Shown piece by piece: positions 3,941 through 64,000 of a stretch of DNA of 64,000 bases. Every line of letters begins with the position of its first letter. Position 1 is the first letter of the stretch. The stretch comes from Squalus acanthias. Lineage: Eukaryota. The notes under the pieces are model-generated. The model did no database searches. It worked only from the letters and a program-made list of their open reading frames with translations, and was not told the DNA's origin. The translations under genes and the position numbers were made by a program. Location of the stretch: NCBI GenBank assembly GCA_030390025.1, contig CM059432.1, forward strand, positions 17,734,001-17,798,000. Direction: 5' to 3'.

Positions 3941-4030
3941 TTACATGCTGGAAAGAGATTGAAAGGGAGTTAAGCTACGGCACATACTTTTTCATTCTTT
4001 TATCTGTTTGCAGTAGTGGGTCCTCTTTAC

Positions 4031-4129
4031 CTTAGACTGCCACGTTAAATCTCCTCCCTCCTCAATCAACGCCTGGATCATTTTCATGTTGCCGTGCCGA
4101 GCCGCGATATGCATGGCCGTCTCACCGTT
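4031..4129 (-). CDS. trpn1: TRPN1 exon (most 3' in window): [33 protein letters not shown]
   Basis: 99 nt; acceptor cggcag, donor AAG|gtaaag. Confidence 0.92.
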
Positions 4130-42219: not shown

Positions 42220-42496
42220 CTGAAAAGTAAAGAAAAGTGCAGTGAAATAGGCGCTGTGCATCCTGAGGAGGCTATCGATACAGCAACATTTTTCCATTTA
42301 TTTCCCCAGTTCTCACTCCTGCTCATCACCTGTGATACTGTTCAGCGGGCAATGGCTGTATTCCTACCAAGTAATCACTCTTCATAAAAAGGTGGGGAAA
42401 TCTATGTATGTAGGATTAGCATGGTTTGCCTGGCTGTTTGAACAAACTTCCTTCACTTGTTTGTTGGTTCTCTTCAATAAATCATCGTTAACTAAT

Positions 42497-44290
42497 TAAA
42501 ATTTCTGGCAGGGGAGAGGCGGGCCTAGAAGTTGGGCTGCTTGGTGAACACTTTTCAAGGCGCTACACGGCCTGCTAAGGCCCCAAAATGGCGCCCGGAA
42601 GTGCGCCTTCCGCCATATAGGTAGAGGAGGTAGCGCTCGCGTCAGGAGCGCACGCAGACAGCGTTTAAAGTCAAAAATAATTTTTGTAGTTGAGGGCCCT
42701 GCGGTTCGTTTTTGGACTTTCCCAGTGCTTCACCGGCCACGTGTTGACCTCTCAGCACAACGTGACGCTAATGGGCATGAAGGTCCTCTCGCCAGCGCTA
42801 TTGAAAGGGATCATCCAGTACTTGCAGGTTAGTTGCTGGTTCACTACTTCTGGCTACTCTTTGACTTCTGGGCATTTTTCACTGACTTCAAAGTTCACTT
42901 TGTCTGCACAGGTAGAGATTTTGCTGCTTTTTGCACTGTTTTTGCTCTTTGACTCGCAACGTGTCTGGCTGCAGATATGGGTGGTCTGGTAAGGCTGGGA
43001 ATAGAACATGATTGGGAGACACCACAAAGCAGGCGAAGCTGCCAGAGGAGGTAGGAGGAGGAGGAGGGCACTCAACAGGAGGCCATATCCACCGAGGGTC
43101 TTCAGGGAACACTTCTTCTATCCTTAACATGACTGAGGAGCAATGTATGAGTCGCTTTCGCCTTACCAAGGCTACGCCACCTGCTCCAGGCTCAACTACA
43201 GCCTCAACCCAGGGCATGAACAGCACAGTCTATGGCTGTCAAGGTCACTGTCGCCCTCAACTTTTATGCAACGGGCTCCTTTCAGGCTGCAACAGGTGAC
43301 ATTAGCAACATCTCCCAGTTTGCAGTGCACCGATGTATCAGGGAGGTCACCGAGGCTCTATACACCAAAAGAAACACCGACATCTCCTTCCCTATCTCAC
43401 ACCCAAGTCCCGTTCACCCATCACCCCTGCTGCTCGCTGACCTACATTGGCTCCTGGTCAGGCAACGCTTCGATTTTAAAATTATCATCCTTGTTTTCAA
43501 ACCTCTACATGGTCTCGCCCCTCCCTATCACTGTAACCTCCTCCAGCCCTACAACCCCTCTGAGATCTCTGCGTTCCTCCAATTCTGGCCTCCTGAGCAT
43601 CCCCGATTTTAATCGCTCCACCATTGGCGGCCGTGCCTTCAGCTGCCAAGGCCCCAACCTCTGGAATTCCCTCCCTAAACCTCTCCACCTCTCTCTCCTC
43701 TTTTAAGGCGCTTCTTAAAACCTACCTCTTTGACCAAGCTTTTGGTCACCTGCCTTAATAGCTCCTTATGTGGCTCAGCATCAAATTTTTTTTGATAACG
43801 CTCCTGCGATGCATCGAGACATTTAATAACTACATTAAATGTAAGTTGTTGTTGCTGTTGTTGTTATTGACAGAGTGAAGCAGGATGAACAAGCATGAGG
43901 TATTGCCCGCATGGTGGACAGTGCGTTACGTGTTCCACATCAGCACCCTGGAATATTTATCAATCGGAAGGGATTCCACTCCCTCAACGTACAACTGGTT
44001 TGAAACCACAGGCAGTGCATCATGCAGGCCTGCGTCTTGCTATCCCGGCAGCAGTCATGACTCTTTCATTCTGTGCCAGTCCTCCGCGGTGACTTTATTC
44101 CAACCAGGCCGCCAAGGTACAAGCTGACTATTGGGCAAGAAAGGTTATCGCTTCCGGTGGAGTGCGGTGAGTGCAGCAGTGGGGACGACTCCAGTTAGGA
44201 ACCCGAAGATGCACAGCACGCCTCCAATGAGAGCCATGCTGCCACAAGGAACCCCAATGCAGCAAACAATCGACATGCTCAAGCAGCACG
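42497..44290 (+). mobile_element. Degenerate PIF/Harbinger transposase gene, interrupted by an L2 fragment (~43395-43865)
   Basis: [79 protein letters not shown]. Confidence 0.85.
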
Positions 44291-44377
44291 AGAGAAGCGG
44301 CCTCGGCAGAGCATCGCGAGAGACCCGAGGAGTGGCTAGATAAGAAGCACGAGAGAACCAGCAGTCATAGAGTCTAA

Positions 44378-45121
44378 GGGCTAAAAATTGAGTCGCGCCC
44401 CACTTTTAGCGCCCCGAAAAAATTAGCGGCCCCGCGCCGGAACTTCAGTGGTTGCGCCCCAAGAGGGAAGCGGGGCGCCACTGGAAGCACCCCGCATCCC
44501 TCTTGGGGCGCTGCGAGTCAATATCGTGGCGCTATGTGCTGCAGCGCCAGGCGCTGCGGCACGTCGCGCCGCGGTATTGCAGGCCTTCCTCCCCTTCTTA
44601 AAGGGGAGGGACCCTGCGCAGCGCGAACCGGGGCCCAGCTGGGCCCCCAGGGATCGGGAGTGCCGGCAAAAGAGCCCGGCACTCAAGAGAAGTGCCGGGC
44701 TCTTGGAGCGCAGCCGGCACTTCACGGTGGGGGGGCTTCACGGGGTCCGGGGACAGCAACGGGGGCAGGTGCTGGCAGGCGGCCAGCAACAAAAATGGCC
44801 GCCTGCCACCTCCCCTTTAAATATCGCCGCCCCGGCCGCACGTACGCCTCCCTGAACCCGTCGGACATAGCGTCTGGCGGTAAATCAGGGGGCGCGACTG
44901 AAGATCGCGGCTGGAGCGCGAGCGGGGTGCTGCGCACGGCGATGACGTCATCGCCGGCGGCGCAGCGCCACAGGGCGCTACCGGCTGGCGCCGCCGCTAA
45001 CCTCCCGCTGAATTTTGCGGGAGGCGTGGGTAGCGCTGCGCCCGGGCGTTAGCTGCTTTACGCCCCATTAGCGCCCTCTTAAGGCGCTAACGGGAGGCGC
45101 AAGCAGCTGAATTTTTCCCCC
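44378..45121. mobile_element. CpG-rich non-autonomous Harbinger-like element
   Basis: Ends gggctaaaaatt / aatttttcccc; tagcgcc subterminal motifs as at 25092-26170. Confidence 0.65.
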
Positions 45122-45122
45122 T

Positions 45123-46127
45123 GAGTGTCTCCGCTTCCACCACTTCCATCGGCAGCGAGTTCCAGGTCCTCACCACTCACTGCGTAAAAAAGTTTTTCCT
45201 CACATCCCCTCTGTATCTCATGCCCAAAACCTTAAATCTGTGTCCCCTAGTCCTTGTACCATCAACTAGTGGGAACAGCCTTTCCCCGTCTAGCCTATCC
45301 AAACCCATCATAATCTTGTACACCTCTATCAAATCATTCTTCAACCTCCTTTGTTCTAATGAAAACAAATCCAGCTTCTCCAACCTGTCCTTGTAGATAA
45401 GATCCCCCATCCCCAGAACCATTCTGGTAAATCTCCTCTGCACCCTTTCAAGGGCCTTCACATCCTTCCTAAAGTGTGGTGACCAGAACTGGATGCAATA
45501 CTCCAGTTGTGCTCTAACCAACGCTTTATAGGGGGTGCTATAGTGTTAAGTTCGTGTAAGTATTTAGTTTAGCGGTTAGTGTTTTTAGTGGTTGCTGTTA
45601 GCTAAACAGTTAAATGACCTTAAAGCTAAACAAACAGTTTCAAATAAGTGTTAGCTAACATGGCAGGACAGCTGAAGCCCATCGCATGCACATCATGTGC
45701 CATGTGGGAACTCCAAAACCCTTTGTGTGCCCTGGAAAACCAAATATACAGGAAGTTCCACGAACTGTTCGAGCTCGAGTTCAGAGTTTCAGAGCTTGAG
45801 GGCTGGCTGGCGTCACAACAGTGCATACGGGAAGCTGAGAGTTTTGTGGATAGCACGTTTAAGGAGATGATTACCCCTCAGCCAAAGAGAGTTCAAGAGG
45901 AGAGGATGTGGGTGACCACCAGGCAGACTAGGAGGAACAGGCAGGCAGTGCAGTAAAATCTAAATGGTACTATTTTGAGGGGGGTGCAAGAGCAGGGGGA
46001 CCTGGGGTGCATATTCACAAATCTTTGAAGGTGGCAGGGCAAGTTGATAAGGCGGTTAAGAACGGATATGGGATACTTGGCTTTGTGTATAGGGCAATGT
46101 ATGCAAAACAAGGAAGTCATGCTAAAC
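45123..46127. mobile_element. Rearranged CR1: minus-strand 3' part (45123-45529) joined to a plus-strand 5' part (ORF1 N-terminus 45648-45956 plus ORF2 piece)
   Basis: ORF 45177-45521 (-) is the CR1 C-terminus; ORF 45648-45956 (+) has CTSCAMWE..ELEFRVSELE, the CR1 ORF1 zinc-finger/coiled coil. Confidence 0.75.
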
Positions 46128-46200
46128 CAGTGGTGGGCAAAATATGGCCCACGGGCCGTATCCGACCCACCAATGGATTCTGTCCGGCCCACCAAGGCCT
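46128..46200 (+). mobile_element. hAT-like terminal fragment
   Basis: cagtggtgggcaaaatatggcccacgggccgtatccgaccc resembles hAT termini (CAGGGGTGGGCAA..GGCCCGCGGGCC). Confidence 0.5.
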
Positions 46201-46309
46201 GGCTTCAAGATGTGAACGTCCGCCGAATCTGACCCCGCCCCATGTGATGTCAAGAGGCGGGTCATTGTCTCCGAGGCAGCAGGGGAGTCAACATAGCAAC
46301 GGGCCTTAG

Positions 46310-47545
46310 AGACGGGAGGCAAAGCCAAACTTGATTGCATTTTTTGAGGCGGTAACAAGGAGGGTTGATGAGGGTAGTGGGTTTGATGTAGTCTACGTGG
46401 ATTTTAGCAAAGCTTTTGACAAGGTCCCACATGGCAGACTGGCCAAAAAAGTAAAAGCCCATGGGATCCAAGGGAAAGTGGCAAGTTGGATCCAAAATTA
46501 GCTTAGTGGCAGGAATCAAAGGGTAATGGTTGACGGGTGTGTTTGTGACTGGAAGACTGTTTCCAGTGTGGTTCTGCAGGGCTCAGTACTAGATCCCTTG
46601 CTTTTTGTGGTATATATCAATGATTCAGACTTCAATGTAGAGGGCATGATTAAGAAGTTTGCAGATGAAACAAACATTGGCTGTGTGGTTGATAGTGAGG
46701 AAGAAAGCTGTAGACTGCAGGAAGATATCAATGGACTGGTCCAGTGGGCAGAAAAGTGGCAAATGGAATTCAATCCGGAGAAGTGTGAGGTAATACATTT
46801 GGGGACGGCTAATAAGGCAAGGAACACATAATAAATGGTCGGACACTGAGAAGTGTAGAGGAATATAGAGACCTTGGAGTGCATGTCCACAGATCCCTGA
46901 AGGTAGCAGGACAGGTAGATAAGGTGGTTAAGAAGGCAAACGGGATACTTTCCTTTATTAGCCAAGGCATAGAATATAAGAGCAGGGAGATTATGCTTGA
47001 ACTGTATAAAACACTAGTTAGGCCACTGCATACAGTTCTGGTCACCACATTACAGGAAAGATGTGATTGCACTAGAGAGGGTACAGAGGAGATTTACAAG
47101 GATGTTGCCAGGACTTGAGAATTTTAGCTATGAGGAAAGATTGGATAGGCTGGGTCTGAGTGGAGACTTAATTGAGTTGTATAAATTTATGAGGGGCCTA
47201 GATAGAGTGGATAGGAAGGACCTATTTCCCTTAGCAGAGGGGTCAATAACCAGTGGGCATAGATTTAAAGTAATTGGTGGAAGGATTAGAGGGGAGTTGA
47301 GGGGAGTGCTTTTCACCCAGAGGGTGGTGGGGGTCTGGAACTCACTGCCTGAAAGGGTGGTAGAGGCAGAAACCCTCATGCATTTAAAAAGTGCTTGGAT
47401 GTGCACTTGAAGTGCCGTAAACTGCAGGGCTACGGACCAAGAGCTGGAAAGTGGGGATTAGGCTGGAGAGCTCTTTTTCGGCCGGCACAGACACGATGGG
47501 CCGAATGGCCTCCTTCTGTGCCGTAAATTGCTCTGATTCTATGAA
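46310..47545 (+). mobile_element. CR1 LINE RT and 3' end
   Basis: ORFs 46526-46831, 46879-47118 and 47063-47410. Confidence 0.9.
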
Positions 47546-47989
47546 GATACAGAGGCTGAGGTGGGCAGGAGGAGGCCGGGATCATCAATCCCACTGCACT
47601 CTAATTTTGGTCAAAACCTTTAAGCTGTTTCTCAGCGGGGTGCCTTAAGCTTTACTTTTGCATCGCTCTAAATGAAAGAGTTGCTGCTGTTAAAGTGGTG
47701 ATGTAACTCCAAAGGTCGGGTCCCCTCTGATTCTGGAGTGTATGGACGGAAACACCAGCGTGGTGTCCAGCCGAGTTTAAAAAGTGCTGAGGGATTCCGT
47801 TTACCCGTTTACCTGGGCGTAAGAGTTTAAAAAAAAAAATGCTTTGAGGCTCCTGCCCACCCTCGAAACATTTCAACTTTAATTTCTGGCAGCAGAGCCC
47901 CGCGTCTACGTGTGACCATGACCGCACACAGGTGCTCCTGGCAGCACCATGTGTCGATTTGCAGCCGGGCATAGTCCACAGCAGAACTG

Positions 47990-48485
47990 ATTCACCAGGC
48001 TGATACCTGGGATGGCAGGAATGACGTATGAGGAGAGATTGGGTCGATTGGGCTTATACTCGCTGGAGTTTAGAAGAATGAGAGGGGAATCTCATTGAAA
48101 CTTATAAAATTCTGAAAGGACTGGACAGACTAGATGCAGGAAGGATGTTCCCGATGGTCGGGGAGTCCAGAACCAGGGGTCACAGTCTAAGGGTAAGGGG
48201 TAAGCCATTTAGGACAGAAATGAGGAGGAATTTCTTCACCCAGAGAGTGGTGAACCTGTGGAATTCTCTACCACAGAAGGCAGTAGAGGCCAATTCATTA
48301 AATATATTCAAGAAGGAGTTGGATATATTTCTTAAGGCTAAAGGGATCAAGGGATATGGGGAGAAAGCAGGGACAGGGTTCTGAATTTGGATGATCAGCC
48401 ATGATCTCATTAAATGGCGGAGCAGGCTAGAGGGGCCGAATGGCCTACTCCTGCTCCTATCTTCTACGTTTCTATGTTTCTATGT
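47990..48485 (+). mobile_element. CR1 3' end, same young subfamily as 17227-20860
   Basis: Peptide nearly identical to ORF 17317-17760. Confidence 0.9.
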
Positions 48486-49454
48486 AACTCCGATGCTTCC
48501 AGTGCAACCATCAATCCCAGACCATTAACGTGGTGAAGCTGCAGTCTGGGTCGCTCTCTGTGAAAGTGCACAGAATTTCAGACAGATTAACTTTGCAAAA
48601 GACTTTCTGGGAGTTTGGGGCTTTTTACTTCATTGGGAACACGTCAGCCCATAGTTTCAGTCTCATTTGTTGCAGTGACCAACCAAGATGAGCGCCATTT
48701 TGACTGGTCGGTGTGAGATTAATCCCTCTCACGCTGAGTGTGCCATGCATTGGACAGTTTCAGAGGAAGCTCTCAAGTTGCTACGCATATTGCAAAAAGT
48801 CTTCAGGCTTCTGTGGGATACATTGGGCCACGGCCCCCACCCCACCCCCCCCCCCACCGGGGGGAGGGCCTTTTACCGACGGCAGCGCGGCCCCTAAACC
48901 AGTGGAGTGCGGTGAGTGCAGCAGTGGGGAGGGCACAGGCCTGTAGGAAACACAGCAGCCAATTTGCGCACAGTAAGCTCCCACAAACAGCAATGTGATT
49001 ATGACCAGATAATCTGTTTTAGTGATGTTGATTGAGGGATAAATATTGGCCAGGACACCGGGGATAACTCCCCTGCGCCTGATTTAGCGCTCAAATCACC
49101 TCCAGGGGCGATAGAGGCGAATTTTGCAGTCGGAGGCGATAATTAGCGGCAGGCGCTAAACTTTGCACCCGGCCGATATTAGCGCCCCAAAATGGGCGAT
49201 ACCGAATTTTTCTCCCCAGTTGGGGTCGGGGGATTTTATTGCAAATATGGTCTGTTTAATTGAGGACTAGGCATAAAAAAATTAATCCTCTGCTCACTTC
49301 TAGTTTCTTTTGCAATTGTCAATGTTAAAAATCAGGAATGCTCTCTTTCATCCTCTTTAATTCAGTTTCCATATTTCTGAAACTAAAAGAAAAATTCAAA
49401 AATACCGGGTTTAAAATATTACAATAGATTTTTTTAATATTCTTGCACATAAAG

Positions 49455-50215
49455 TTGATACGGCTGTTAAAAAGGCTTACACGATCCTTGGCTTTATAAA
49501 TAGAGGCATAGAGTACAAAAGCAAGGAAGTTATGCCAAAGTTTATAAATCACTGGTTAGGCCTCAGCTGGAGTACTGTGTCCAATTCTGGGCACCACACA
49601 AGGATGTCAAAGCATTGGAACGGGTGCAGAGGAGATTTACTAGAATGGTACCAGGGATGAAGGACTTCAATTATGTGGAGATGACTAGAGAAGCTGGGAT
49701 TGTTCTCCTTCGAGCAGAGAAGGTTAAGGGAAGATTTAATAGAGGTGTTCAAAATCATGATGGGTCTTGACAGAGTAAAGAGGAGGAAACAGTTTCCACT
49801 GGCAGTAGGGTCGGTAACCAGAGGACATAGATTTAAGGAATTGGCAAAAGAGAATTTTTTTTCCCCCCAGGATCTGGAATGCCTTGCATTTAGGTGGTCA
49901 CCTGTCCTAATATCTCCTTATGTGGCTCGGTGTCAAATTCTGATTGATAGCGTCCCCGCGAAGCGCCTTGAGACGTTTTGCTACGTTAAAGGCGCTATAT
50001 AAATGCAAGTTGTTGTTGTTGCTGGTGTGTAGTGGAAGCAGATTCAATAGTAACTTTCAAAAGAGAATTGGATAAATACTTGAAGGGGAAAAAAAAAATG
50101 ACAGGGCTGTGGGGAAAGAGCCGGGGAGTGGGACTAATTGGACAGCTCTTTCAAAGAGCCCGGCACAGGCACGATGGGCCGAATGGCCTCCTCCTGTGCT
50201 GTAGGATTCTATGAT
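49455..50215 (+). mobile_element. CR1 3' fragment with an inserted L2 tail (~49890-50025)
   Basis: CR1 C-terminal motifs; ggcgctatataaatgcaag(ttg)n. Confidence 0.8.
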
Positions 50216-50596
50216 AGAAAGAATATACTACGTGACTAGGGAACATCAACTTTATTCCCTTTGTGAGGAATACTTGTGCAATGTAATGTAATGCATTGCA
50301 CTTCATCAGCAGGGCTGGAATTGAATCCAGGTCCCAGAGGTGAAAATGCCTGTATCTAACCCACTCCCCCATTTCCCTTTGTTCTTTGCCAACTATATAA
50401 CAAGATGGATGTTCCATAATGACCTATTGTATAATTTTTTTTTTACCTGGAGCAATAAACCCAGAACTAGAAGTAACTGTTTGTGGCATAATGTCACAAA
50501 CTCTCCCAGCCAGAATATGAATGTGTATAAAATAGAGTCAGAAACACATTGTTCTCTGTCTATGTATGCTTTGTATCTGATTTGTATTCCCTCACT

Positions 50597-50633
50597 TTAC
50601 CTGACGAAGGAGCAGCGCTCCGAAAGCTCGTGA
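50597..50633 (+). ncRNA. Minimal hammerhead motif in a short PLE insert (50538-50685; 12-bp TSD TATAAAATAGAG)
   Basis: TTAC-CTGACGA-A-GGAGC(AGC)GCTCC-GAAA-GC-TC-GTGA. Confidence 0.68.
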
Positions 50634-51131
50634 TTTCAAATAAAACTGTTGGACTATAACCTGGTGTTGTGCGACTTCTCATTTTTATAAAATAGAGGGA
50701 AGGGCACACAGTTGATTAGCTGGCTGTCCTTTCACCTCTAATGGGATCTATTCTGAATCCAATCCAGAATGAGGGAAGTCCTCTCTCTCGGCTGGCTGCA
50801 AGGGTCTTGTGTGAAATATGCAGCTTCAACCCATTTCCTCGTGGGCGTGAGCCCATAGCACAAAACTGCTCCTAATTTGGTACTAAATTAATGATGTCAT
50901 TCAAAGGCAATAATGGTGGCTTGTGTATTATATAGAAATAGGTGCGGTAAGGGTAAGGGTAAGTAGAGAGAGGTTTACTCTGCCGCCGCTTGTGCTAATC
51001 CTGACCGTGGAAATGTTCGTACCGCTTGGTGTTCTGGTGCTAGCATTAAAATTCCTCGCTTTGCTAAGCACAAAATTTTATCCCATCAACAAAAAGAAAG
51101 AAAAAAGGGAGATAAGAGGAATCCTGGCTGT

Positions 51132-51270
51132 ACACAATACCTTATATGGCAGTGATGTCTCATCTACGTCATAATCGGTGCCGAACACATCATGTCGCCA
51201 ATCCCTTACAAGGCAGTGAAAGCTCACAAAAATCTAACACATCATAATAGACGCCTCATATATTATAAGC
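51132..51270 (+). promoter_or_regulatory. Protamine Z1 promoter: CArG box CCTTATATGG (51140-51149), CRE half-site CGTCA (51167-51171), CArG-like CCTTACAAGG (51204-51213), TATA-like TATAAG (51264-51269)
   Basis: Motifs read directly; colinear with the Z2 promoter. Confidence 0.7.
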
Positions 51271-51350
51271 TGTGAAAGATATTAAAACATCAAAAAAAAG
51301 ACAAAATACTGGGATTCAAGAAGCAAAAGAAAGCTGAAAAGGACACAATA

Positions 51351-51506
51351 ATGCAGTGCGGTAAGCCAAAAAAGAAACCAGAAGCTTGTTTTTTACGAAG
51401 GCGGCACTTGCGACGCCTCCATATATGCAAAAGGGACAGATCTAAAACTTATCGAAGGAGACGCCACATTAGAAGATTGCCAAAAAGACGAAGAAGAAGA
51501 TGTTAA
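51351..51506 (+). CDS. Sperm protamine Z1-like (scylliorhinine Z1 type), 51 aa, intronless: [51 protein letters not shown]
   Basis: Translated by hand: 18 Arg, 7 Lys, 4 Cys. Closely resembles the recalled dogfish Z1 (..KPKKK...[39 protein letters not shown]). Upstream TATA; AATAAA at 51638 and 51654. Confidence 0.92.
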
Positions 51507-51637
51507 AAGTTGACTATGCCAGATTCATCCAGCCAACTAGTAACATTCTTAATGAATTTTGTGAAGAAAAATTCACTTCGTGAAGAGATCCTCTCTGAAA
51601 TCAATGCTGTCGCTGCTTTATATACTGCGGCAATTTG

Positions 51638-51659
51638 AATAAACTTCAAATCAAATAAA
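51638..51659 (+). terminator. Tandem poly(A) signals (AATAAA x2) of the protamine Z1-like gene
   Basis: AATAAA at 51638-51643 and 51654-51659, about 130 nt after the stop, followed by GT/T-rich sequence. Confidence 0.7.
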
Positions 51660-52719
51660 CATTGTGTACCTTGTTTTCAATTAAGTGTCCTGTTGATCCT
51701 CATTTACTGATCTATGATGTAACCATTTATAATCGCCTTTCTTGTAACTTTTTTACTCTTTTACTGTCTCTTTAATACTATGGGCTTCCTTGGGGCAATG
51801 CGGAGCCAATACAAAGTGGTCCACCAGATTCAGCTCCTGAGGTGGCAGATCTCAACTGGGACATCAAAATCAGTAGCTTCTGAATCGAGAATGGGGAAGA
51901 ATAGCCAAAGCTCCTGCTCCTGAATGCTATCCAATGACCTTCACTGGGAAAGTGCACTTGGGGGGATTTTAGAGCTCAGCTGCGACGCCACTGACATGTA
52001 ATGGTGCGCTGCTGTTCAATCCTGGCCTAAGTTGTCTGGCTCCGGTGGATCTGCAGAGGATGGGGCCAAGACCATGCTTTCAACCCCCCGCACCTTTGGC
52101 AGAAAATATATGTTCACCCACTCGTAAATGGGGAAACGCGGTCTCCAAGTTTTCCGTAATTAAGCCTAATCGAGCGCTGGGTGCAAGGACCCGCCTGCCC
52201 TGGGGGTTTAACAGAAGAGCCTGTGCAAATGGTCTCAGAGCGCAGCCGTACGCAGACCCCATCAACAAGGGGAATTTTATTTATGTTTGACTGGAATGAA
52301 AGCTACTCTTCTGACTCCGGCAGTCCTGTGTGCATTGACTGCAGCTGAGACCATTCAGTTCTGTAATGAATCCTATTGGGGTGAAATCACAACATGCAAT
52401 ATTTTATGTCTATATTAAATTCCTGAAGAAGTTATGTCGAGATACAAAGGAGCAACAGATACAAATGATCGTGTATCCGAAGCACATCCCCAGCATAGAC
52501 GCTATCATTCCTCTAAATGTTAAATCCGGTGACGTAAAGGATGAGCTCCCCACCACCCACCCAAAAAAAATGTTGTTCGTGTTAATTGGACCTTATTCTT
52601 GATACTTACATTTGGAGTTTGTCCAGATATACAAAGAGAAAAGAGAGGAAAACCCAACAAGTAGACTTCCAATATCGGGCTGCTGTGTCGCCGGCAGCAG
52701 TGCCTCGGGTAAATCTTAA

Positions 52720-53235
52720 AGGGGTAGGGAAGACGACCGGGATAGGGGGGCGACCGGGAGAGGGGGGCGACCGGGAGAGTGGGCAACCGGGAGAGAGGGG
52801 CAATTGGCAGAGGGGGGTGATTGGGAAAGGGGGCGATTAGGAGAGGGAGCGATCAGGGGAGGGGGATCGGGAGAGGGAGCGATCGGGGGAGAGAGCCGAT
52901 CGGAAGTGGGAGATTGGGGGGGGGAGACGGGGAGAGGGGGGCGATTGGGAGGGGGAGATTGGTAGAGGGGAGCGATCGGGTGAGGGGGAAATCGGGAGAG
53001 GACGGATCGGGAGAAGGGGGCAATCGTGAGAGGGGGATCGGGGGAGATCGGGAAAGGGGCATTGAGAGGGACGTTCGGGAGAGGTGGGGATCGGGGGAGG
53101 GTGCAATCAGGAGTGGGAGCGATCGGGAGGGGTTGGCGACGTGATTGGAGGGTCGAGATCGCAATTGGAGGTGTCAAGCTCCCAATCAGGGCAGGGATGT
53201 GGCGATCAGGGGTGGGTGCTTCGATCGAGGTGGGA
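52720..53235 (+). repeat. Purine/G-rich low-complexity repeat ((c)gatcgggrg units), probably the interior of a non-autonomous DNA transposon
   Basis: Dozens of G3-G7 runs spaced by gatc/gatt; source of the Pro-rich and Gly-rich ORFs. Confidence 0.8.
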
Positions 53236-53344
53236 GATCAGAAATCTATCTAATTTCTAGAAGGCATTTACAGAGTTCCTCATGAAAGGCTATTAGTTAA
53301 CCTCAAAGCTGTGGAGATTCAGGGAAATTCTTATGTAAAGATAT

Positions 53345-55363
53345 GGGGTGAAATACTATAACGCTGGAAAATGGGCAGGAGCACAGTAAAGTGAGATATG
53401 CCTGTACACAGTCAAAAAGCGCAGGCTGACGTCAACTTCGTGCTGTCTACTAATTACCATAATTGTAGTGCAAAACGGAACGCGCTCCTGACAGGCTGTG
53501 TGCTCAGCAGGGGGCCGAAGTTCACGTCGCTGAAGCAAGACAAACTTTACTTAAAGCTAGCCTACTCCTCCACAAGGCAGTCTGCAGCTCTTAAAGGTGA
53601 GCTGCCTTCTGCTGATCAAAAATGCCAAAAGTGCTTCAGCACTAACACAAATGGCTCAACAGGCCAGGGAAACGACACCCAGGGTCTCGGACGCAGCACT
53701 TGAGCTTTGTGCAGGGGGTTAATACTGGAAGAGAGGTCCTCTACCCACAGGGGCCTCCAGAAAGAAGGATGTGGGACCAGATCGCCGAGGCAATGCCGCC
53801 TGGGACCCCAGGACCTGGCTCTAGAGCCCAAAGAAGTTTCATGACCTCAAACGAGTGGTCAAGGTCAGTGAATACATCTTCAAAAGCCATCTCCTACCAA
53901 CTACATCACTAGCCTCACACACTGCTCAATGCATGACCACCCCACCCCCACCCCCGCCCCCCATCACTCACATACCAACAATCTCTACCAAACACAAGGC
54001 ACACCTCACATTCCTAGCTTCACCTGTTGGAGGAGACAGTGCTGGCAATTCTTGGCAGGGGCATGGCTGAGCCCTTGGCTAACGGCGGGGCTGAAAGAAT
54101 ACAAGATGCCAGTATCCTCATACATTATCCTCCTTCTCACATCCCACTTCACCCGCATCCCAGAATCTCTTCTGATTTACAAGCTGCACATGGTGTAAGC
54201 ATGCACCTCTTGCTTTCCCCTCCTCACCTCATCACATTTCTTCTTCATTTCAGACACCCAAGAAATCCAGCCTGCCAGCCAATGCTTGACCCAGAAGAGG
54301 GGGAGGAGAGTGACGAAAAAGAAGAAACATCATCACTCAATTTCACACTCCCAGCCACCAGCTCCTCCACTGAAAGTCAGCAGCCTTCCACCAGCCATGC
54401 TGCAGCCATTGGGGTAGCACTGTGTAACAGCACTAGGATAGGCAGGACAGTCACTAAGGGAATGCACAAGGGTGATTAGTTGATTTTTTGATGTAATATT
54501 GGATGCATATATGGATAAAGTTGGATTGGAAAGTTTGCTTTGTGCTTGCTTTTATTTCAGCATTGTGGCCAAGAGGACGCTGTGATGGTCAGTAACAGAG
54601 GGAAAGGAAGTTGTGGGACAGATGTTGAAAGGGAATTGGGGTTGTGTTCACTGGTACCGCAGGCGGAGGATTCGATCCCAGATATCCCGGCCAGAAAGGG
54701 GCTGTCTGGGTTGCCTCCTTCCTTCCGCTTCCTCTCTTCCGCTTCCTCCTCCCTCTGCTTCTCCTCCCTCTGCGAGCAGTTTGTCCCCTTTGCTGCCTCT
54801 CCTCTATCTCCATGTGATGCTGCAGCCCAAGAGGGACTGCAGCTAGAGTCCCCGGGACTGGGAACAAGTGGTCTTCTTAGAGGCCTTCATTTAACAACCA
54901 AAGCTTTACAAACACCCAACAGCACTCCCTGCACACTTTAACAACTTTTTAAATGTATTGCACCAAGCCACAACTCCAATAAAATGTAAGGAAGCCTGTC
55001 CAAAAGCAAAAAACTACACTTAGCTGAAAGTTGTGTGTGTCCCTTTAAGAAGCGCTGGTAGTGGCTCCGTTGTACTGCTGCACGCACGTTCTTCCGTGCA
55101 TGGTTTGGAGAGGGCGTTATTAGCAGTGGCGACATCCAAAATCAGAGATCGTGCGTCAGTTCACACGTTGCACGCTGAGTGATGTCACGATCTGGATCAT
55201 TTAAATACGGGAAGCGAGAGCTGGCAGCAGCAGTGCTGCCAACCTGCCGCAAAATGGCGGCCGCCGCGTTCCGCACTGGAAGCCAGCAGAAGCGAGGCAG
55301 CCGCCATTTTTTTCCACCAAACCGGCCTTAACAGCCGACGTTAAAAGGCTCCAAATTCGCGGC
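53345..55363. mobile_element. Degenerate Harbinger-type element (Myb/SANT-like ORF remnant on plus, acidic transposase-tail-like remnant on minus)
   Basis: Ends ggggtgaaat / aaattcgcggcc; RRMWDQIAEAM Myb-like remnant. Confidence 0.5.
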
Positions 55364-56291
55364 CAACGTATCAAAATATTCCAGCTGGAAGGTGAGGGGA
55401 AAAAATCTAACCAATGGGGCTCGCCGTGAGATGGCCCACTCCAGCAAACTCTGGGCCAATAGGGAACTGGGTAGAACAATGGCCGATAAAGTTTAATAAC
55501 GACAGATGTAAACTGCTACTCATTGGAAGGAAACACATGTAACTTTGTGAATTGACTTCAAATAGCTTGGGATGAAGTTGAGAAAAAAGCCAGGGGGTCT
55601 AAGCAAACGCGGCGCTCACATTTTCCAACCAATGCAGACCAGCAAAGCTGACAATGTTGAACCAATGGAATACAATTTAGAGAAAGTCAATGATCAAACA
55701 ATGGGGAGAGAGCGGGAATATGGTATTGAGATAGAGGATCAGCCATGATCATATTGAATGGCGGAGCAGGCTCGAAGGGCCGACTGGCCTGCTCCTGCTC
55801 CTATTTTTCTATGTTTCTATGTTTCTAACTGTACAGTGGTCTGGACAGACCATACCTTGAGCACTATATCTGGCCACTGGGGACAGAGGGGAGCTACTCA
55901 AACACTCGAGGCAGCACAGAGGAGAGCCACAAAGGCTGAAGGCCGGGCTTAAAAGGTCTGTTATGAAGAAAGACTGGCTTTTCATCCCGAGAGGTAATCT
56001 TTTAGAGCGGACAAGACTGTTAATGGTATGGTAAAGGTAAATCCAGTTTTAATTAAACAGTGAGAACAGACTCAGTTGCCTGCCTGCACATTGATAGGTG
56101 TCAGGTGATCAGACATCACGTGATCAGACCTTCAGGAATGCCTCCAACCAGATTTGGCAACTCTATGACACATAAACTTGATTGTACTCAACAATCCACT
56201 GGTGAGAAGTATATATACGAAGCGTAAATATGCTTTTGTGAGTTTTAACCCCATTGTGTAGGCCTGGAGGATAAACTATAGTAGCTTTATA

Positions 56292-56445
56292 CAACAATAC
56301 CTTATAAGGCAATGATACTCGCTCGCATCACAATCAACACTGAGCGCCTCATGTTTAATGTCAAATATGGACCTTACAAGGCCGTGGAAAACTGCAAAAT
56401 CACGGCGACATCACAGTAGGCCAGACCTATGAAAAAACTATAAAA
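56292..56445 (+). promoter_or_regulatory. Protamine Z2 promoter: CArG box CCTTATAAGG (56300-56309), CArG-like CCTTACAAGG (56372-56381), CRE-like CGACATCA (~56406), TATAAAA (56439-56445)
   Basis: Motifs read directly; colinear with the Z1 promoter. Confidence 0.72.
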
Positions 56446-56495
56446 CTGGAAATTGCAACATTTAGAAAAGAAAGTCAGTGGTTAAACTCTGAACC

Positions 56496-56639
56496 ATGAA
56501 GAGGTGTGGGCGCAAGCGCAGGCGCAGGCGCAGAAATGCGTGCAAGCCGAAGAAGCGGCCGTGCAAGCAAAGATCGAGTACTATTGTCAGAGCCCATCTT
56601 GTTCATCGCAGAAGAGCTGCAAGACGTTGCGCTCATTAA
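56496..56639 (+). CDS. Sperm protamine Z2-like (scylliorhinine Z2 type), 47 aa, intronless: MKRCGRKRRRRRRNACKPKKRPCKQRSSTIVRAHLVHRRRAARRCAH
   Basis: Translated by hand: 16 Arg, 6 Lys, 4 Cys. Closely resembles the recalled dogfish Z2 (MKCGRKRRRRRRHACKRKKRACKQRSSTIVRAHLVHRR..ARRCP). Kozak accATG, TATAAAA at 56439, AATAAA at 56796. Confidence 0.93.
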   Translation: MKRCGRKRRRRRRNACKPKKRPCKQRSSTIVRAHLVHRRRAARRCAH

Positions 56640-56795
56640 GAAGCTACAATAGACCAAAGAAGAAATAGTGAGAACCATGTTTGAGCTGAGCTAACGAGTG
56701 CTCTGAAAATGTGCACGAGGCCGACTTGTACTTGAAGGGAACTATATTTGAATGCAACTTCGCTACTTCACACCCATGTTCACTGATTCAAATTG

Positions 56796-56801
56796 AATAA
56801 A
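56796..56801 (+). terminator. Poly(A) signal of the protamine Z2-like gene
   Basis: AATAAA about 157 nt after the stop; context caaattgAATAAA resembles Z1 caatttgAATAAA. Confidence 0.7.
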
Positions 56802-57834
56802 ACGCCTACAAGTACTTGAGACTTGAAAGAACTAAAATATTGTGTATGGCTCAAGTTTTTCTTCAGGTGTAAGGTTTAACTATAAATTTTTGTTTCCATC
56901 TTGACTGTGCAAGCTGATCAAGCAAGAATGCTGCGGCCACTGGAAAAGCACACTGGTCTTTTGAGTAACCAAGGGTTATTCAACAGCCCCCCCTCTGAAC
57001 AGGCACCCCTGACAATACCGTACTCCCTCAGTACTGCACTAGGGTGGCAGCCGAGTTTATTATGATGAGGGGCAGAAGTGCTACTGGCTGATTGTACACC
57101 ATCAGCGCCACTTAGATTGTTGCCTCATAATTGTTGCTATCACCTTGCAACGCTAAATAGTTGAGAGTAGGACAAGTAGATACAAATTCAAACTGGTAAA
57201 AAGGCAAATTAAAACTGATGTCAAGAAGTTCTTCAGACAAATAGTGATCAATATATGGATGGACTTCTAGTTTGCAAAGGTGAAATGAATTTAAATGGGC
57301 CAAATGACCTATCCTAGACCCATCATGTTGAAAGGGGTTATGGAGACTTACCTTACTAAACTAAACTAACTCAAAAGAATAGGGAAGGCCATTCGGCCCA
57401 TCTTAATTAAACCATTAAGACCCTACAGTTCCACCCATTGCAGCATCCAGCGTTTTTACCTCCACTACTTTATCTGGGAGTCCATTCCGTGCATTGATCA
57501 CTCTTTGTGTGAAGAATCTACAGATACTAGCCCTAAATTTACCTTTTCCCAGTTTGAACCTTGTCCTTCTCTCCCAGTTTAAAGTAATATTCTGGATTTA
57601 CATTTTCCATTCCCTTAACTATCTTATATACCTCGAGAAGGTCATCTCGCAGATGCCTTCTTTCCAGGATGCAAAGCCAACTTTCTCCAGTCTTTCCTTG
57701 TAACTCAGATTACATTAGCAATCAGACTCTTGGTCCTTCTCTGCACCGCTTCCAGTGTATGAATTTCTCTATTTCTGGCAAGCAGAACTGGTTTCAGTAT
57801 GTAAGTTGTGGTCTGACCAGAGCACTGGTCTCAG

Positions 57835-58852
57835 TCAGCCTTGGCTCAGTGGTAGCGCTCTCACCCTGAGTCCAAAGGTTGTGGGTTCAAGTCCCCCATA
57901 CAGCAGACCTGAACACATAATCTAGGCTGACACTTTTCAGCGCAGTACTGAGGGAGTGCTGCTCTGTCGGAGGTGCCGTCTTTTGGATGTGACATTAAAC
58001 CGAGGCCCCCGTCAGCCCTGACAGATGGACGTAGAAGATCCCATGACACTATTCAAGCGCAACCTCAAGCTACATAATATCAACGTTAATACAAAAGAGT
58101 ATGCTGGAAATCTGAAATAAAAACAGAAAATGCTGGAAATACTCAGCAGGTCAGGCAGCATCTGTGGAGAGATAGAGTTAACGTTTGAGGTCGATGACCT
58201 TTCAGGTAATAGAATGTTATCATTTATTGCGAGGGGAATTGAATACAAAAGTAGGGAGGTTATGCTTCAGTTGTACAGGGCATTGGTGAGACCACATCTG
58301 GCGTACTGTGTACAGCATTGGTCTCCTTATTTAAGGAAGGATGTAAATGCGTTGGAGGCAGTTCAGAGAAGGTTCACCAGACTAATACCTGGAATGGGCG
58401 GGTTGTCTTATGAGGAAAGGTTAGACAGGCTAGGCTTGTATCCGCTGGAGTTTAGAAGAATAAGAGGTGACTTGATTGAAACATATAAGATCCTGAGGGG
58501 TCTGGACAGGGTGGATGTGGAGAGGATGTTTCCTTTTGTGGGAGAATCTAGAACTAGGGGTCACTGTTTAAAAATAAGGGGTCGCCCATTTAAGACAGAG
58601 ATGAGGAGAAATTTTTTCTCACAGAGGGTCGTGAGTCTTTGGAGCTCTCTTCCTCAGAGGGCGGTGGAAGCAGAGTTTTGAATATTTTTAAGGCAGAGGT
58701 AGATAGATTCTTGGTAAGCAAGGGGGTGAAAAGTTATCGGGGGTAGGTGGGAATGTGGAGTAATCAGATCAGCCATGATCTTATTGAATGGTGGAGCAGG
58801 CTCGAGGGGCCTAGTGGCCGACTCCTGCTCCTAATTCGTATGTTCGTATGTT
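57835..58852 (+). mobile_element. Cluster of DeuSINE 5' part (57835-58055), short PLE fragment (~58100-58204, minus) and CR1 3' end (58205-58852)
   Basis: SINE head; gctggaaatactcagcaggtcaggcagcatc; ORF 58130-58681 CR1 C-terminus. Confidence 0.82.
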
Positions 58853-59899
58853 CTGTTTTTATGTAATATCACCGTTGAGAAAGTCGCATCGCTGACTGAA
58901 CGAGCTGGCGAGCTGTGATGTCTGACAGTGTGTTGATCTCCTGAAGCAGGTGACAGCAGCACAACAATGAGCAGCAGCTTGTCGATCACAGTCTGTGAAA
59001 CGTGCGAGAGAGCTTGCCTCCTCACTCGAGCCGGTACAGTCATAAAGACTGATTCACTTTTCCACACAATGGTCATCATCTTTGACAAGGAGTTGCCAGT
59101 TTGCAATTTTTTTGATCTAGTATCTATCTATCCGCTGCTGAAATAATAAGAAGTTATTCACAAGCAGAACTCAGCAACTTCACCTCTGCAAATGAGCCTA
59201 AATACAATGCGGATCGGTTTTTAATGACATTGAATTAAATATGCTAGCAAAGGAATGCAAAAAAGGTCAAAGGTTGCAATTTGTTAACAATAACATATGT
59301 CAAAAGTCACACGCAGCATCATGTCTGGGACGACATGGTCTCTCCTGGAGTTGTCCATCATTTCCAGCCTGGAAAAACATAGAAACATAGAAAAATTGGA
59401 GCAGGAGTAGGCCATTCGGCCCTTCGAGCCTGCTCCGCCATTCAATATGATCATGGCTGATCCTCTATCTCAATACCATGTTCCCGCTCTCTCCCCATAC
59501 CCCTTGATGCCCCATGTGTCTAAATCAACAGCTCCAAGTTCTGCGCAAAGCCTTGGCCAATATTGGAGCCAGACTCCTCCATGCTCCTTGACATTGCCAA
59601 GAGACAGTGCACCCCTAGTGGCTGCAGCAGGCTTACCATTGCACCTAGCAATTCGGTGTGCATGCCCATCACCCTTCTTCTGAAGGCTGCCCTATCGAGG
59701 TCCTCATCTGAGTCATGTGCAGCAGAACTCGCTCGTGAACACGCCCTACGGGGAGCTGGCCCCGAGCTACCCTTTTCCCCTGGCCTTGCTGCAGCCCACT
59801 CGTGCCCGGTACCTCACCTTGTGCAGATCCCACATCTGCATTACCCTCCTACACTCCCCTCCAGTTGGCTCAAGGCCTGTAAGAATTAGCTATCTCAAG

Positions 59900-62040
59900 A
59901 GTTGTTTATTCTCACATCCATGAGGCACTGTGGACCATCAGCAGCAGCAGAATTGTATTCCACCACAATCTGTAACCTCATGGCCCGGCATATCCCTCAC
60001 TCTACCATTACCATCAAGCCAGGGGACCAACCCTGGTTCAATGTGGAGTGTAGAAGAGCATGCCAGGAGCAGCACCAGGTGTACCTAAAAGTGCGGTGCC
60101 AACCTGGAGAAGCTGCAATACAGGACTACATGCATGCTAAACAACGGAAGCAGCATGCTATAGACAGAGCTAAGCGATTCCACAATCAACAGATCAGATC
60201 AAAGCTCTGCAGTCCTACCACATCCAGTCGTGAATAGTGGTGGACCATTAAACAACTAATGGGAGAAGGAGGCTCCATGAATATCCCCATCCTCAATGAT
60301 GGTGGAGCCCAGCACGTGAGTGCAAAAGACAAGGCTGAACCATCTTCAGCCAAAAGTGCCGAGTGGGTGATCCATATCGGCCTACTCCTGAGGTCCCCAC
60401 CACCACAGAAGCCAGTCTTCAGCCAATTCGACTCACTGCATGTGATATCAAGAAATGGCTGAGCGCACTGGATACAGCAAAGGCTATGGGCCCCGATAAC
60501 ATCCCGGCTATCATGCTGAAGACTTGTGCTCCAGAACTAGCCGCGCCTCTAGCCAAGCTGTTCCAGTACAGATACAACACTAGCATCTATCCGACAATGT
60601 GGAAAACTACCCAGGTATGTCCTGTCCCTTAAAAGCAGGACAAAATAAATCCGGCCGATTACCAGCCCATCAGTCTACTCCCAATCATCAGCAAAGTGAT
60701 GGAAGGTGTCATCGACAGTGCTATCAAGCAGTACTTACTCACCAATAACCTGCTCACTGATGCCCAGTTTGGGTTCCGCCAGGACCACTCATCTCCAGAC
60801 CTCATTACAGCCTTAGTCCAAACATAGACAAAAGAGCTGAATTCCAGAGATGAGGTAAGAGTGACTGCCCTTGACATCAAGGCAGCATTTGACCAATTGT
60901 GGCATCAAGGAGCCCTAGTAAAACTGAAGTCAATGGGAATCGGGGGGAAAACTCTCCACTGGCTGGAGTCATACCTAGCACAAAGGAAGATGGATGTGGT
61001 GGTTGAAAATCAATCATCACAGCCCCAGGACATCGCTGCAGGAGTTCCTCAGGGCTGTGTCCTAGGCTCAACCATCTTCAGCTGCTTCATCAATGACCTT
61101 CCCTCCATCATAAGGTCAGAAGTGGGGATGTTCGCTGACGACTGCACAGTGTTCAGTGCCATTCGCAACTCCTCAGATAATGAAGCAGTCCATGTCCACA
61201 TGCAGCAAGACCTGGATGATATTCAGGCTTGGGCTGATAAGTGGCAGGTAACATTCACGCCACACAAGTGCCAGGTAATGACTATCTCCAACAAGCGAGC
61301 ATCTAACTACCGCCCCTTGACATTCAACAGCATTACCATCGCCGAATCCCCCACCATCAATATCCTGGGGGGTCACCATTGACCAGAAATTTAACTGGAC
61401 CAGCCACATAAATACTGTGGCAACAAGAGCAGGTCAGAGGCTGGATATTCTGCGGCGAGTGTTTTGCCTCCTGACTCTCCAAAGCCTTTCCACCATCTAC
61501 AAGGCACAAGTAAGGAGTGTGATGGAATACTCTCCACTTGCCTGGATGACTGCAGCTCCAACAACACTCAGGAAGCTCGACACCATCCAGGACAAAGCAG
61601 CCCGCTTGATTGGCACCCCATCCACCACCTTAAACATTCACTCCCTCCACCACCAGCGTACCGTGGCTGCAGTGTGTACCATCTACAAGATGCACTGCAG
61701 CAATTCGCCAAGGCTTCTTCGGCAGCACCTCCCAAACTCGTGACCTCTTCCACCTAGAAGGACAAGGGCAGCAGGCGCATGGGAACACTACCACCTCCAA
61801 GTTCCCCTCCAAGTCACACATCATCCTGACTTAGAAGTATTTCGCCATTCCTTCATCGTCACTGGGTCAAAATCCTAGAACTCCCTACCTAACAGCACTG
61901 TGGGAGCACCTTCACCACACGGACTGCAGCGGTTCAAGAAGGCGGCTCACCATCGCCTTCTCAAGGGTAACTAGGGATGGGCAATAAATGCTGGCCTTGC
62001 CAGCGACGCCCACTTCCCATGAACGAATTTTAAAAAAAAC
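59900..62040 (+). mobile_element. CR1/L2-group LINE distinct from the dominant CR1 family, 2.1 kb of ORF2 with RT, degenerate; apparent partner of SINE family B
   Basis: KAMGPDNIPA, ALDIKAAFD, GVPQG..LG, MFADD, WADKWQVTF, YKAQVRSVMEYSPLAW; ends in gggatgggcaataaatgctggccttgccagcgacgcccac plus A-tail. Confidence 0.88.
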
Positions 62041-62609
62041 ATACCACCCCAAGTTTGAGACAATGGGGGCTATTGAGCATATTCCAGAACTGTTTGCATC
62101 TTTAACGTTAGAATGGCCTTCATTTAATGCACCTAGCAGGGGACTTAGCTAAACAGACAAGGTTGTTGCCATGGCTCTCCTACCGAAGAGGGAGGTTTCT
62201 TATTGAAGGTGGTAGCTTTGATTGGCAGCTCAGCAAGCAATGCTTGACACATAGGACCGTCTTCTAATTCTCTCTCTGGACAGAGTCTTGGGCACACTGT
62301 GCCTGGAACAGTCCCAGAGGTCTCAGCTTCTCTCCAGTCAGTATAGAATCATAGAATCATACAGATCAGAAGGAGGCCATTCGGACCATCGTGCCAGTGC
62401 CTGCTCTTTGAAACAGCCATCAATTCGTTCCACCCCACTCTGTTCTTAACCCTAACCACGCAGCCTGTAATAGGGAGATGTTAGTGGCAGTCAATTCAGG
62501 GAGTGAGTTTTCCCATAACACAGGGTATATTTCTATTATTTTGATGATAGGAAGAGTAGTAGGGAATTGACTGAATCTCTGTGTAAAATGATGTTCCGTC
62601 CATTCATAT

Positions 62610-63085
62610 CATCATCATCGGTCTGCCTGAGGCAGGTTCTGGCTCAATTCTTCCTTCTCTAAAGCACTTTGTCATGTGTCTCTCGCTTCAATGCTCCAAA
62701 CTATCTCCCATTCTTCAGGTGGTCCGGAGAAGCATCCTTCTTTTCCTTCCTCTCGGTCTTTTTCCTGCCATCCATCCTCTTAACACCTTTTTCAATGTCC
62801 CGTCCCCTCTCAGAACATGCCCAATCCAATTAATTTGCTGTTTTTCTGAAGTCAATCTAACTTAGTTTTATTCTGTATCATTACCTCCACCTCCTCCTCA
62901 TTAATTTCCTTATCTATCCACTTGAATTTCTCCCTGCATCTCTAAACCTACATCTCAAAGCCTGACCACCTCTTTCCTTGCAGCTGATAAGAGCTTTCTA
63001 ACGTGTCATCTTCCCCTCATCAGCAATACCTTCAGGCTGTGGACCTTAGGGCCGTGTCCTTTTTTGCCCTTCTTCTTCTTCTTCA
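62610..63085 (-). mobile_element. Old RTE LINE 3' fragment
   Basis: Minus strand LNWIGHVLRGDGTLKKVLRGWMAGKRPRGRKR and (gat)n tail. Confidence 0.7.
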
Positions 63086-64000
63086 TTCACAGAGAGAAGG
63101 AGCAATGCTTTACAAATAACATAATTATAAAACATATAGCATGCCACTTTTATTCTTGAAACTCTTTCGGAGCTGTACGGTTGTGTTCCCTCAGACCTAC
63201 CTAGGCACCTGAAGAAACCCAATGGTCAGCTTAACTGTGATCTTGATGAACTAAGTGCTTCATTGTACATATTCTTCTCTGCTGTTCCTGGATGCCCAAG
63301 TGGGGTCATCACCCTGGTTACAAAGGGTTGCCAAGTAATCACCCACTCACATGCCTCTGGACGAATAATTTCGAGATAGTGGACTGGAGAAGTTCAACGG
63401 CATTGTGGCACACATTCACATGAAGAATTATGCGGCTGTCATCACACGCCAGCTGAACATTGAGGGCGTGCAAACCTTTCAGTTGATACATTTCAGTGGG
63501 TGCTGAAATGGAGCCTTAATTGCCACATGTGTCCCACCTATGGTACCCTGGATCTGAGGAAATCCAACCATTCTGTGATATTAACTGTGAAACCTCCCTG
63601 AACGGCTTAAAGTGGTGGTGCCCCGCAGACTGACTAATGCGACTTAGGTCACCCACGGCAACCTGGAAAGTATCTGATGGCGTAAAAATTCAAATCAATG
63701 ATTACTTTTACAGCCACGGACAGGGCTGATTGAAAATAGGCTGCAATTTAGGGGTCAGCAGCTAGCTTAACTCAGGTATTGCATCAGGTGGGAAGCGTCT
63801 GAGAAGTCAAGGAATAAACTCTCACGTTAGGCCCCCTATTTGCATATGCAAAGAGCTTAACGCCTGTTTCAGGCACAGGCCCTGGACGCCTATACTTCAT
63901 CCTTTACCCATATGACAGGTGGCGCAGAATGTGCGCACGCATGTCGCCCGCCATATTGGATATCGAGCCACCTATTTTACGCCTGTAAAACGGGCGCTGT

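Follow-up and report, generated by a model that had tools for sequence, protein, structure and literature searches.

Protamines are small proteins in which Arg makes up about 30% or more of the residues and is arranged in runs. Their genes are transcribed in spermatids, the Arg runs bind DNA phosphates, disulfide cross-links are formed through Cys, and the sequences change fast. In mammals, protamine genes have one intron, and their neighbours are SOCS1 and RMI2, within the SOCS1-RMI2 interval. The protamines of dogfish sperm were reportedly sequenced in the 1980s; the work of Martinage et al., dating from 1985, is said to concern protamine Z2 (scylliorhinine Z2) of Scyliorhinus canicula. The mammalian cluster PRM1-PRM2-TNP2 is described in a study covering amniotes (PMC13756071), where protamine genes are reported to be often present yet unannotated, and whose main text does not mention sharks.

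Two protamine-type genes, adjoined by TRPN1, were identified in the window, as the whole analysed stretch of 64,000 nucleotides is called here (Table 1). As in the mammalian cluster, two Cys protamine genes are arranged in tandem, and the chemistry of their products would be the same as that of mammalian protamines, charge neutralisation being followed by disulfide locking. Unlike the mammalian genes, both have uninterrupted frames, and the neighbour identified is TRPN1, where mammals have SOCS1 and RMI2; in contrast to amniote P1/P2, neither shark protein matches a Pfam protamine model.

The product of the gene at 56496-56639 is comparable to Z1 of S. canicula (P08433) in size, in being about one third Arg and in its four Cys residues, and the promoter of its gene is homologous to that of the Z1 gene in the window. 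The sequences themselves show no likeness beyond composition, since 490 of 2000 shuffles match the score obtained against dogfish Z1, and the identification of this protein as Z1 was rejected on this ground. Judging from the DNA, 56496-56639 is predicted, with a probability of roughly 0.83, to be a working gene for a Cys-containing sperm protamine of this shark, which in all likelihood corresponds to dogfish Z2. The gene itself would be the expected counterpart of a protein reportedly known for decades, and the value of the finding is its genomic address.

Table 1. Position of the protamine genes, of their putative control signals and of TRPN1 exons within the window.
Feature	Position	Strand	Basis or remarks
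Z2-like protamine coding sequence (predicted)	56496..56639	+	47 aa, one exon; frame also unbroken in organisms B and C
TATA box TATAAAA	56439..56445	+	no difference recorded in three runs from relatives
Promoter region homologous to that of the Z1 gene	56290..56477	+	local alignment, shuffles
CArG-type box (CC, six A/T, GG)	56300..56309	+	within 23-base block common to the Z1 promoter
Imperfect CArG-like 10-mer	56372..56381	+	identical in both promoters
Polyadenylation signal AATAAA	56796..56801	+	157 bases past the stop; sole one in 56000-57200
Protamine Z1 homologue	51351..51506	+	51 aa, one exon, 18 Arg, 7 Lys, 4 Cys
Z1 promoter region; CArG-like boxes at 51140 and 51204; TATA-like TATAAG at 51264	51131..51303	+	alignment
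Two AATAAA signals of the Z1 gene (51638, 51654)	51638..51659	+	motif scan
Most 5' TRPN1 exon in the window	42106..42219	-	internal, 114 bases, begins at residue 118
Eight further TRPN1 exons, about residues 155-459	4028..34493	-	protein-to-DNA search
TRPN1 exons, first four of these	34493-34386, about 31630-31520, 28613-28509, 24895-24791	-	
TRPN1 exons, last four of these	12933-12835, 9839-9639, 7605-7501, 4135-4028	-	
Probable TRPN1 intron, at least 21.8 kb, both protamine genes antisense within	42220..64000	-	inference

The reading frame at 56496

An earlier note, made from the letters of this DNA, had placed an intact gene at 56496-56639 on the plus strand, absent from the list of open reading frames. 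Translation of these positions returned the same 47-residue peptide, closed by a TAA stop, and the TATAAAA motif, said to stand 57 nt before the ATG, begins at 56439, exactly 57 bases upstream. The Kozak context, which had been called good, does have A at position -3, but it has A instead of G at +4, and is better described as adequate, short of optimal. The antisense open reading frame at 56475-56678 is present as reported and encodes 67 residues; no features of its own were found among those tested.

The predicted protein contains 16 Arg (34%), 6 Lys (13%), 4 Cys (positions 4, 16, 23 and 45) and 3 His residues. Arg runs are found at residues 6-13 and 38-44, and Ser27-Ser28-Thr29 form a patch. 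The proportion of Arg, the presence of a run of six Arg and the lack of Asp and Glu correspond to the composition expected of a protamine, and a promoter and a polyadenylation signal, as expected of an intact gene, are found on either side of the frame. When the 485 ATG frames of 25-120 aa in the window were ranked by net basic charge, this frame came first, with a value of 0.47. In 100 simulations of the window by a third-order Markov model, no frame of 40-120 aa reached 0.45, the maximum being 0.28. By rank and simulations together, the frame lies beyond chance.

Contig depth is flat across the gene in two genomic runs, and the gene is therefore no high-copy repeat. Short pieces of two very abundant repeats, with high contig depth, flank it at 56096-56166 and 57002-57060, the gene itself having the depth of a single contig.

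Promoter homology with the Z1 gene

The Z1 gene, the promoter region shared by the two genes and the TRPN1 setting had all escaped the earlier note. The frame at 51351-51506 ranks second in net basic charge within the same set of 485 frames. Its 51-aa product matched scyliorhinine Z1 of S. canicula with an E of 1.4e-14, in a cluster which includes P08433. Global alignment to dogfish Z1 gave 40 identities over 51 columns (about 80%), and local alignment to S. canicula Z1 gave 39 over 47; in both cases, none of 2000 shuffles equalled the score. By this protein match the gene is a Z1 homologue, and the identity of about 80% marks the window as DNA of a species other than S. canicula. It is located upstream of the Z2-like gene, on the same strand, and the two ATGs are 5145 bases apart. 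A G-rich tandem array of about 25 copies of a 16-17 base unit is found at 52734-53129, between the two protamine genes.

The alignment of 51131-51303 with 56290-56477 has a score of 83, with 123 identities, 43 mismatches and 29 gap positions. This score was reached by none of 500 dinucleotide shuffles (mean 28, largest 49), and 551 control blocks taken from the window scored 39 at most. Beyond the promoter region, the flanks are at background, both further upstream (352 of 500 shuffles) and downstream (212 of 500). The coding parts show no likeness at the DNA level, as 206 of 500 shuffles score as high, and the two proteins are alike in composition only, their score being attained by 520 of 2000 protein shuffles. 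Likeness between the 3' UTRs is weak (11 of 500 shuffles) and was given no weight.

Each promoter contains two boxes of the form CCTTA(T/C)A(A/T)GG, and these four are the only matches in the window. The first box agrees with the CArG consensus recognised by SRF and further MADS factors, and is a putative site for them. Neither promoter region contains a perfect CRE palindrome, no third copy of the promoter was found in the 64-kb window, and the shared motif had no match in metagenome contigs.

The homology of the promoters suggests an old tandem duplication, after which the coding parts would have diverged beyond recognition. Because the coding sequences have no likeness beyond composition, it is the promoter only that speaks for a duplication, and this segment may instead have been moved from one gene to the other by gene conversion. 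On the reading by duplication, the shared promoter betrays common descent, and two shark protamines whose coding parts cannot be aligned are for this reason likely to be paralogues.

We propose that the shared promoter module activates the two genes jointly in post-meiotic spermatids. The Arg runs of the Z2-like protein would neutralise DNA phosphates and condense chromatin while histones leave, and the Ser-Ser-Thr patch could be phosphorylated during loading. Disulfides would next arise from the four Cys residues, within and between Z2-like and Z1 molecules, and lock the nucleus. In a study of sperm chromatin fibres (PMC2110730), those of dogfish, like those of man and bull, are reported to be dispersed by reduction and alkylation, and those of trout by detergent alone; this result fits disulfide locking.

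Assignment to Z2 and comparison with relatives

The gene had originally been named protamine Z2-like. The first half of this name is upheld by composition, signals, relatives, the Z1 neighbour and the shared promoter, and 56496-56639 is in our judgement very probably a protamine-type gene; the second half was confirmed by no search. The 47-aa protein would closely resemble dogfish Z2, which is presumably of about the same length, with four Cys, an Arg run at its N-terminus and a C-terminal half that is less basic and partly hydrophobic, and shorter than Z1, whose records have 50 and 51 residues. The four cysteines are present in the predicted protein, Cys16 being replaced by Gly in two relatives (organisms B and C).

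A word-indexed protein search with the 47-aa query scored one candidate and kept none, and a full HMMER search against 1.84 billion representatives gave no match. In a control, simulated relatives with 70-90% identity passed the thresholds of both sensitive searches in 197-200 of 200 trials; either the collections thus lack Z2, or its likeness to this protein is lower than supposed. Exact look-up was also blank for the 47-aa protein, as was the Atlas search, whose low recognition makes a blank uninformative. Pfam gave no family for the 47-aa or the Z1 protein up to an E of 10, weak matches being dropped by filters. These last three blanks mean little, since all three resources were blank for the confirmed Z1 homologue as well. 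No Z2 sequence was found in the literature covered, which mostly excludes subscription papers, the dogfish work of the 1980s among them, and no shark protamine was found in supplements of PMC7126135 and PMC11083954.

Provided that it encodes a protamine, the gene is very likely the counterpart of Z2. The other working gene that might be considered, a further Cys protamine of the shark lineage equipped with the Z1 promoter, is improbable. It would explain why the two sensitive searches returned no relative, though the same collection includes dogfish Z1; the blanks, however, could also be accounted for by a length cut in the collections, Z2 being presumably shorter than Z1, and the earlier note and our own reading agree on a close likeness to Z2.

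Four runs were compared over 55950-57150; two genomic ones among them, from organisms B and C, belong to one study. In each of these organisms, one contig spans the whole gene with about 97% identity; 32 differences were counted over 56010-57142 in one genomic run, and 33 over 55950-57142 in the other. Within the coding part, both carry a silent change in codon 3 in addition to the change of Cys16 to Gly, by which at least one cysteine is seen to be dispensable to relatives; a third run, from organism C, shows an additional silent change in codon 5. Neither organism has an indel or a stop in the frame, and no difference is recorded in the TATA box, both CArG-like boxes, start, stop and AATAAA. 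Three of the seven promoter differences hit positions common to both paralogues.

A genuine protamine copy that is silent or decaying, with the active copy elsewhere, is even less probable than a protamine other than Z2. The replacement of Cys by Gly in relatives would agree with such a copy, as would the lack of significant coding constraint: in organism C, 2 of 144 coding and 29 of 992 flanking bases differ (Fisher P 0.41, not significant, in a test whose power at 144 bases is low). No run on record as RNA contains the gene, which points the same way. On the other side, the frame, TATA box, start, stop and AATAAA are unbroken in three organisms, and the coding part shows no loss of CpG (observed/expected 1.14); the fast change of protamines, together with the low power of the test, takes weight from the missing constraint. 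One contig of 166 bases, inside the predicted transcript, matches 165 bases at 56592-56756 with no difference and a depth of 5; its run is RNA by guess, and could be DNA. Another run extends well past the TATA box on the upstream side, and so looks like DNA; neither was counted as a sign of expression.

That the frame arose by chance on a short GGCGCA repeat within an intron is hardly credible, and the promoter homology refutes it in practice: the frame has no database relative, and 4.2 tandem copies of the 6-base unit lie beneath an Arg run, but the repeat spans just 25 of the 144 bases, no simulation yielded a similar frame, and the promoter in front of it is homologous to that of the confirmed Z1 gene.

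The TRPN1 locus and the rest of the window

TRPN1 (nompC) is the only host gene identified in the window besides the protamines. Nine of its exons, encoding residues 118-459, are arranged on the minus strand from 42219 down to 4028; the one at 9839-9639 shares 97% identity with the TRPN1 proteins of Heterodontus and Callorhinchus, which also shows the window to be DNA of a cartilaginous fish. The most 5' exon has a polypyrimidine-CAG acceptor and a GT donor, and does not open with a start codon. When six proteins of sharks, rays and chimaeras were used in tblastn, residues 1-117 had no match in the window; with four N-terminal queries and a profile built from 16 N-termini, the best result in 42.3-64 kb had an E above 6. 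The 64-kb window contains no N. Provided that TRPN1 is complete and its exons are in order, the first of them lie beyond 64000, and both protamine genes are probably nested, in antisense orientation, within a TRPN1 intron of at least 21.8 kb.

A GC- and CpG-rich block at 44001-45300 could in principle be an internal promoter, though parts of it recur in the window as a repeat; the block is probably a transposon end. Its GC content is 0.69 and its CpG observed/expected ratio 0.98 at 44501-45000, and it has an internal inverted match as well as partial copies elsewhere in the window. A frame close to it, at 43232, is presumably Harbinger-like.

Two models from other species touch on the same gene. 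In a ray, a TRPN1 isoform model starts at the exon which is the most 5' here; a long intron at this place in other elasmobranchs, or an internal start, may be the cause. In a turtle, a TRPN1 protein is named as a PTP4A3 isoform, which hints that both genes adjoin there and may help to place this locus relative to the protamine locus of amniotes.

It is conceivable, and put forward tentatively, that in sharks the Z1, Z2 and transition-type S1/S2 genes form one cluster antisense to TRPN1, in its 5' introns and perhaps beyond, whose growth by local duplication is visible only in the shared promoter with its paired CArG-like boxes, and which is unrelated to PRM1-PRM2-TNP2. Were this true, Cys-locked protamines and their clustering with transition-protein genes would have evolved separately in sharks and amniotes, under different transcriptional control. 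Protamines evolve too fast to be traced as proteins, so that a common origin of those of sharks, bony fish and amniotes is hard to test. By protein search, TRPN1 is conserved in chimaeras, rays, bony fish, amphibians, turtles and crocodilians. The TRPN1 anchor, which is a mechanosensory channel gene, and the conserved promoter block would offer two ways of tracing them independently of the protein, and the origin of shark protamines would become testable by synteny. Within the literature searched by titles and the beginnings of abstracts, to which subscription papers mostly do not belong, neither a shark protamine locus nor a link to TRPN1 was found; the genes and their arrangement may already stand in other publications or in annotations of shark genomes.

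A six-frame scan of the window for basic stretches returned nine, none of them a Z3-like or S4-like frame. Two basic frames were rejected as protamines, the one at 43008 sitting among transposon-like frames and the one at 63086 lying on a CTT repeat. Rfam had no match in 42000-64000. Many fragments which we take to be LINEs of CR1/L2 type, with partial reverse transcriptase and endonuclease frames, are located at 11000-21200, 46500-47400 and 58130-61400; those in 13-21 kb are mostly on the minus strand.
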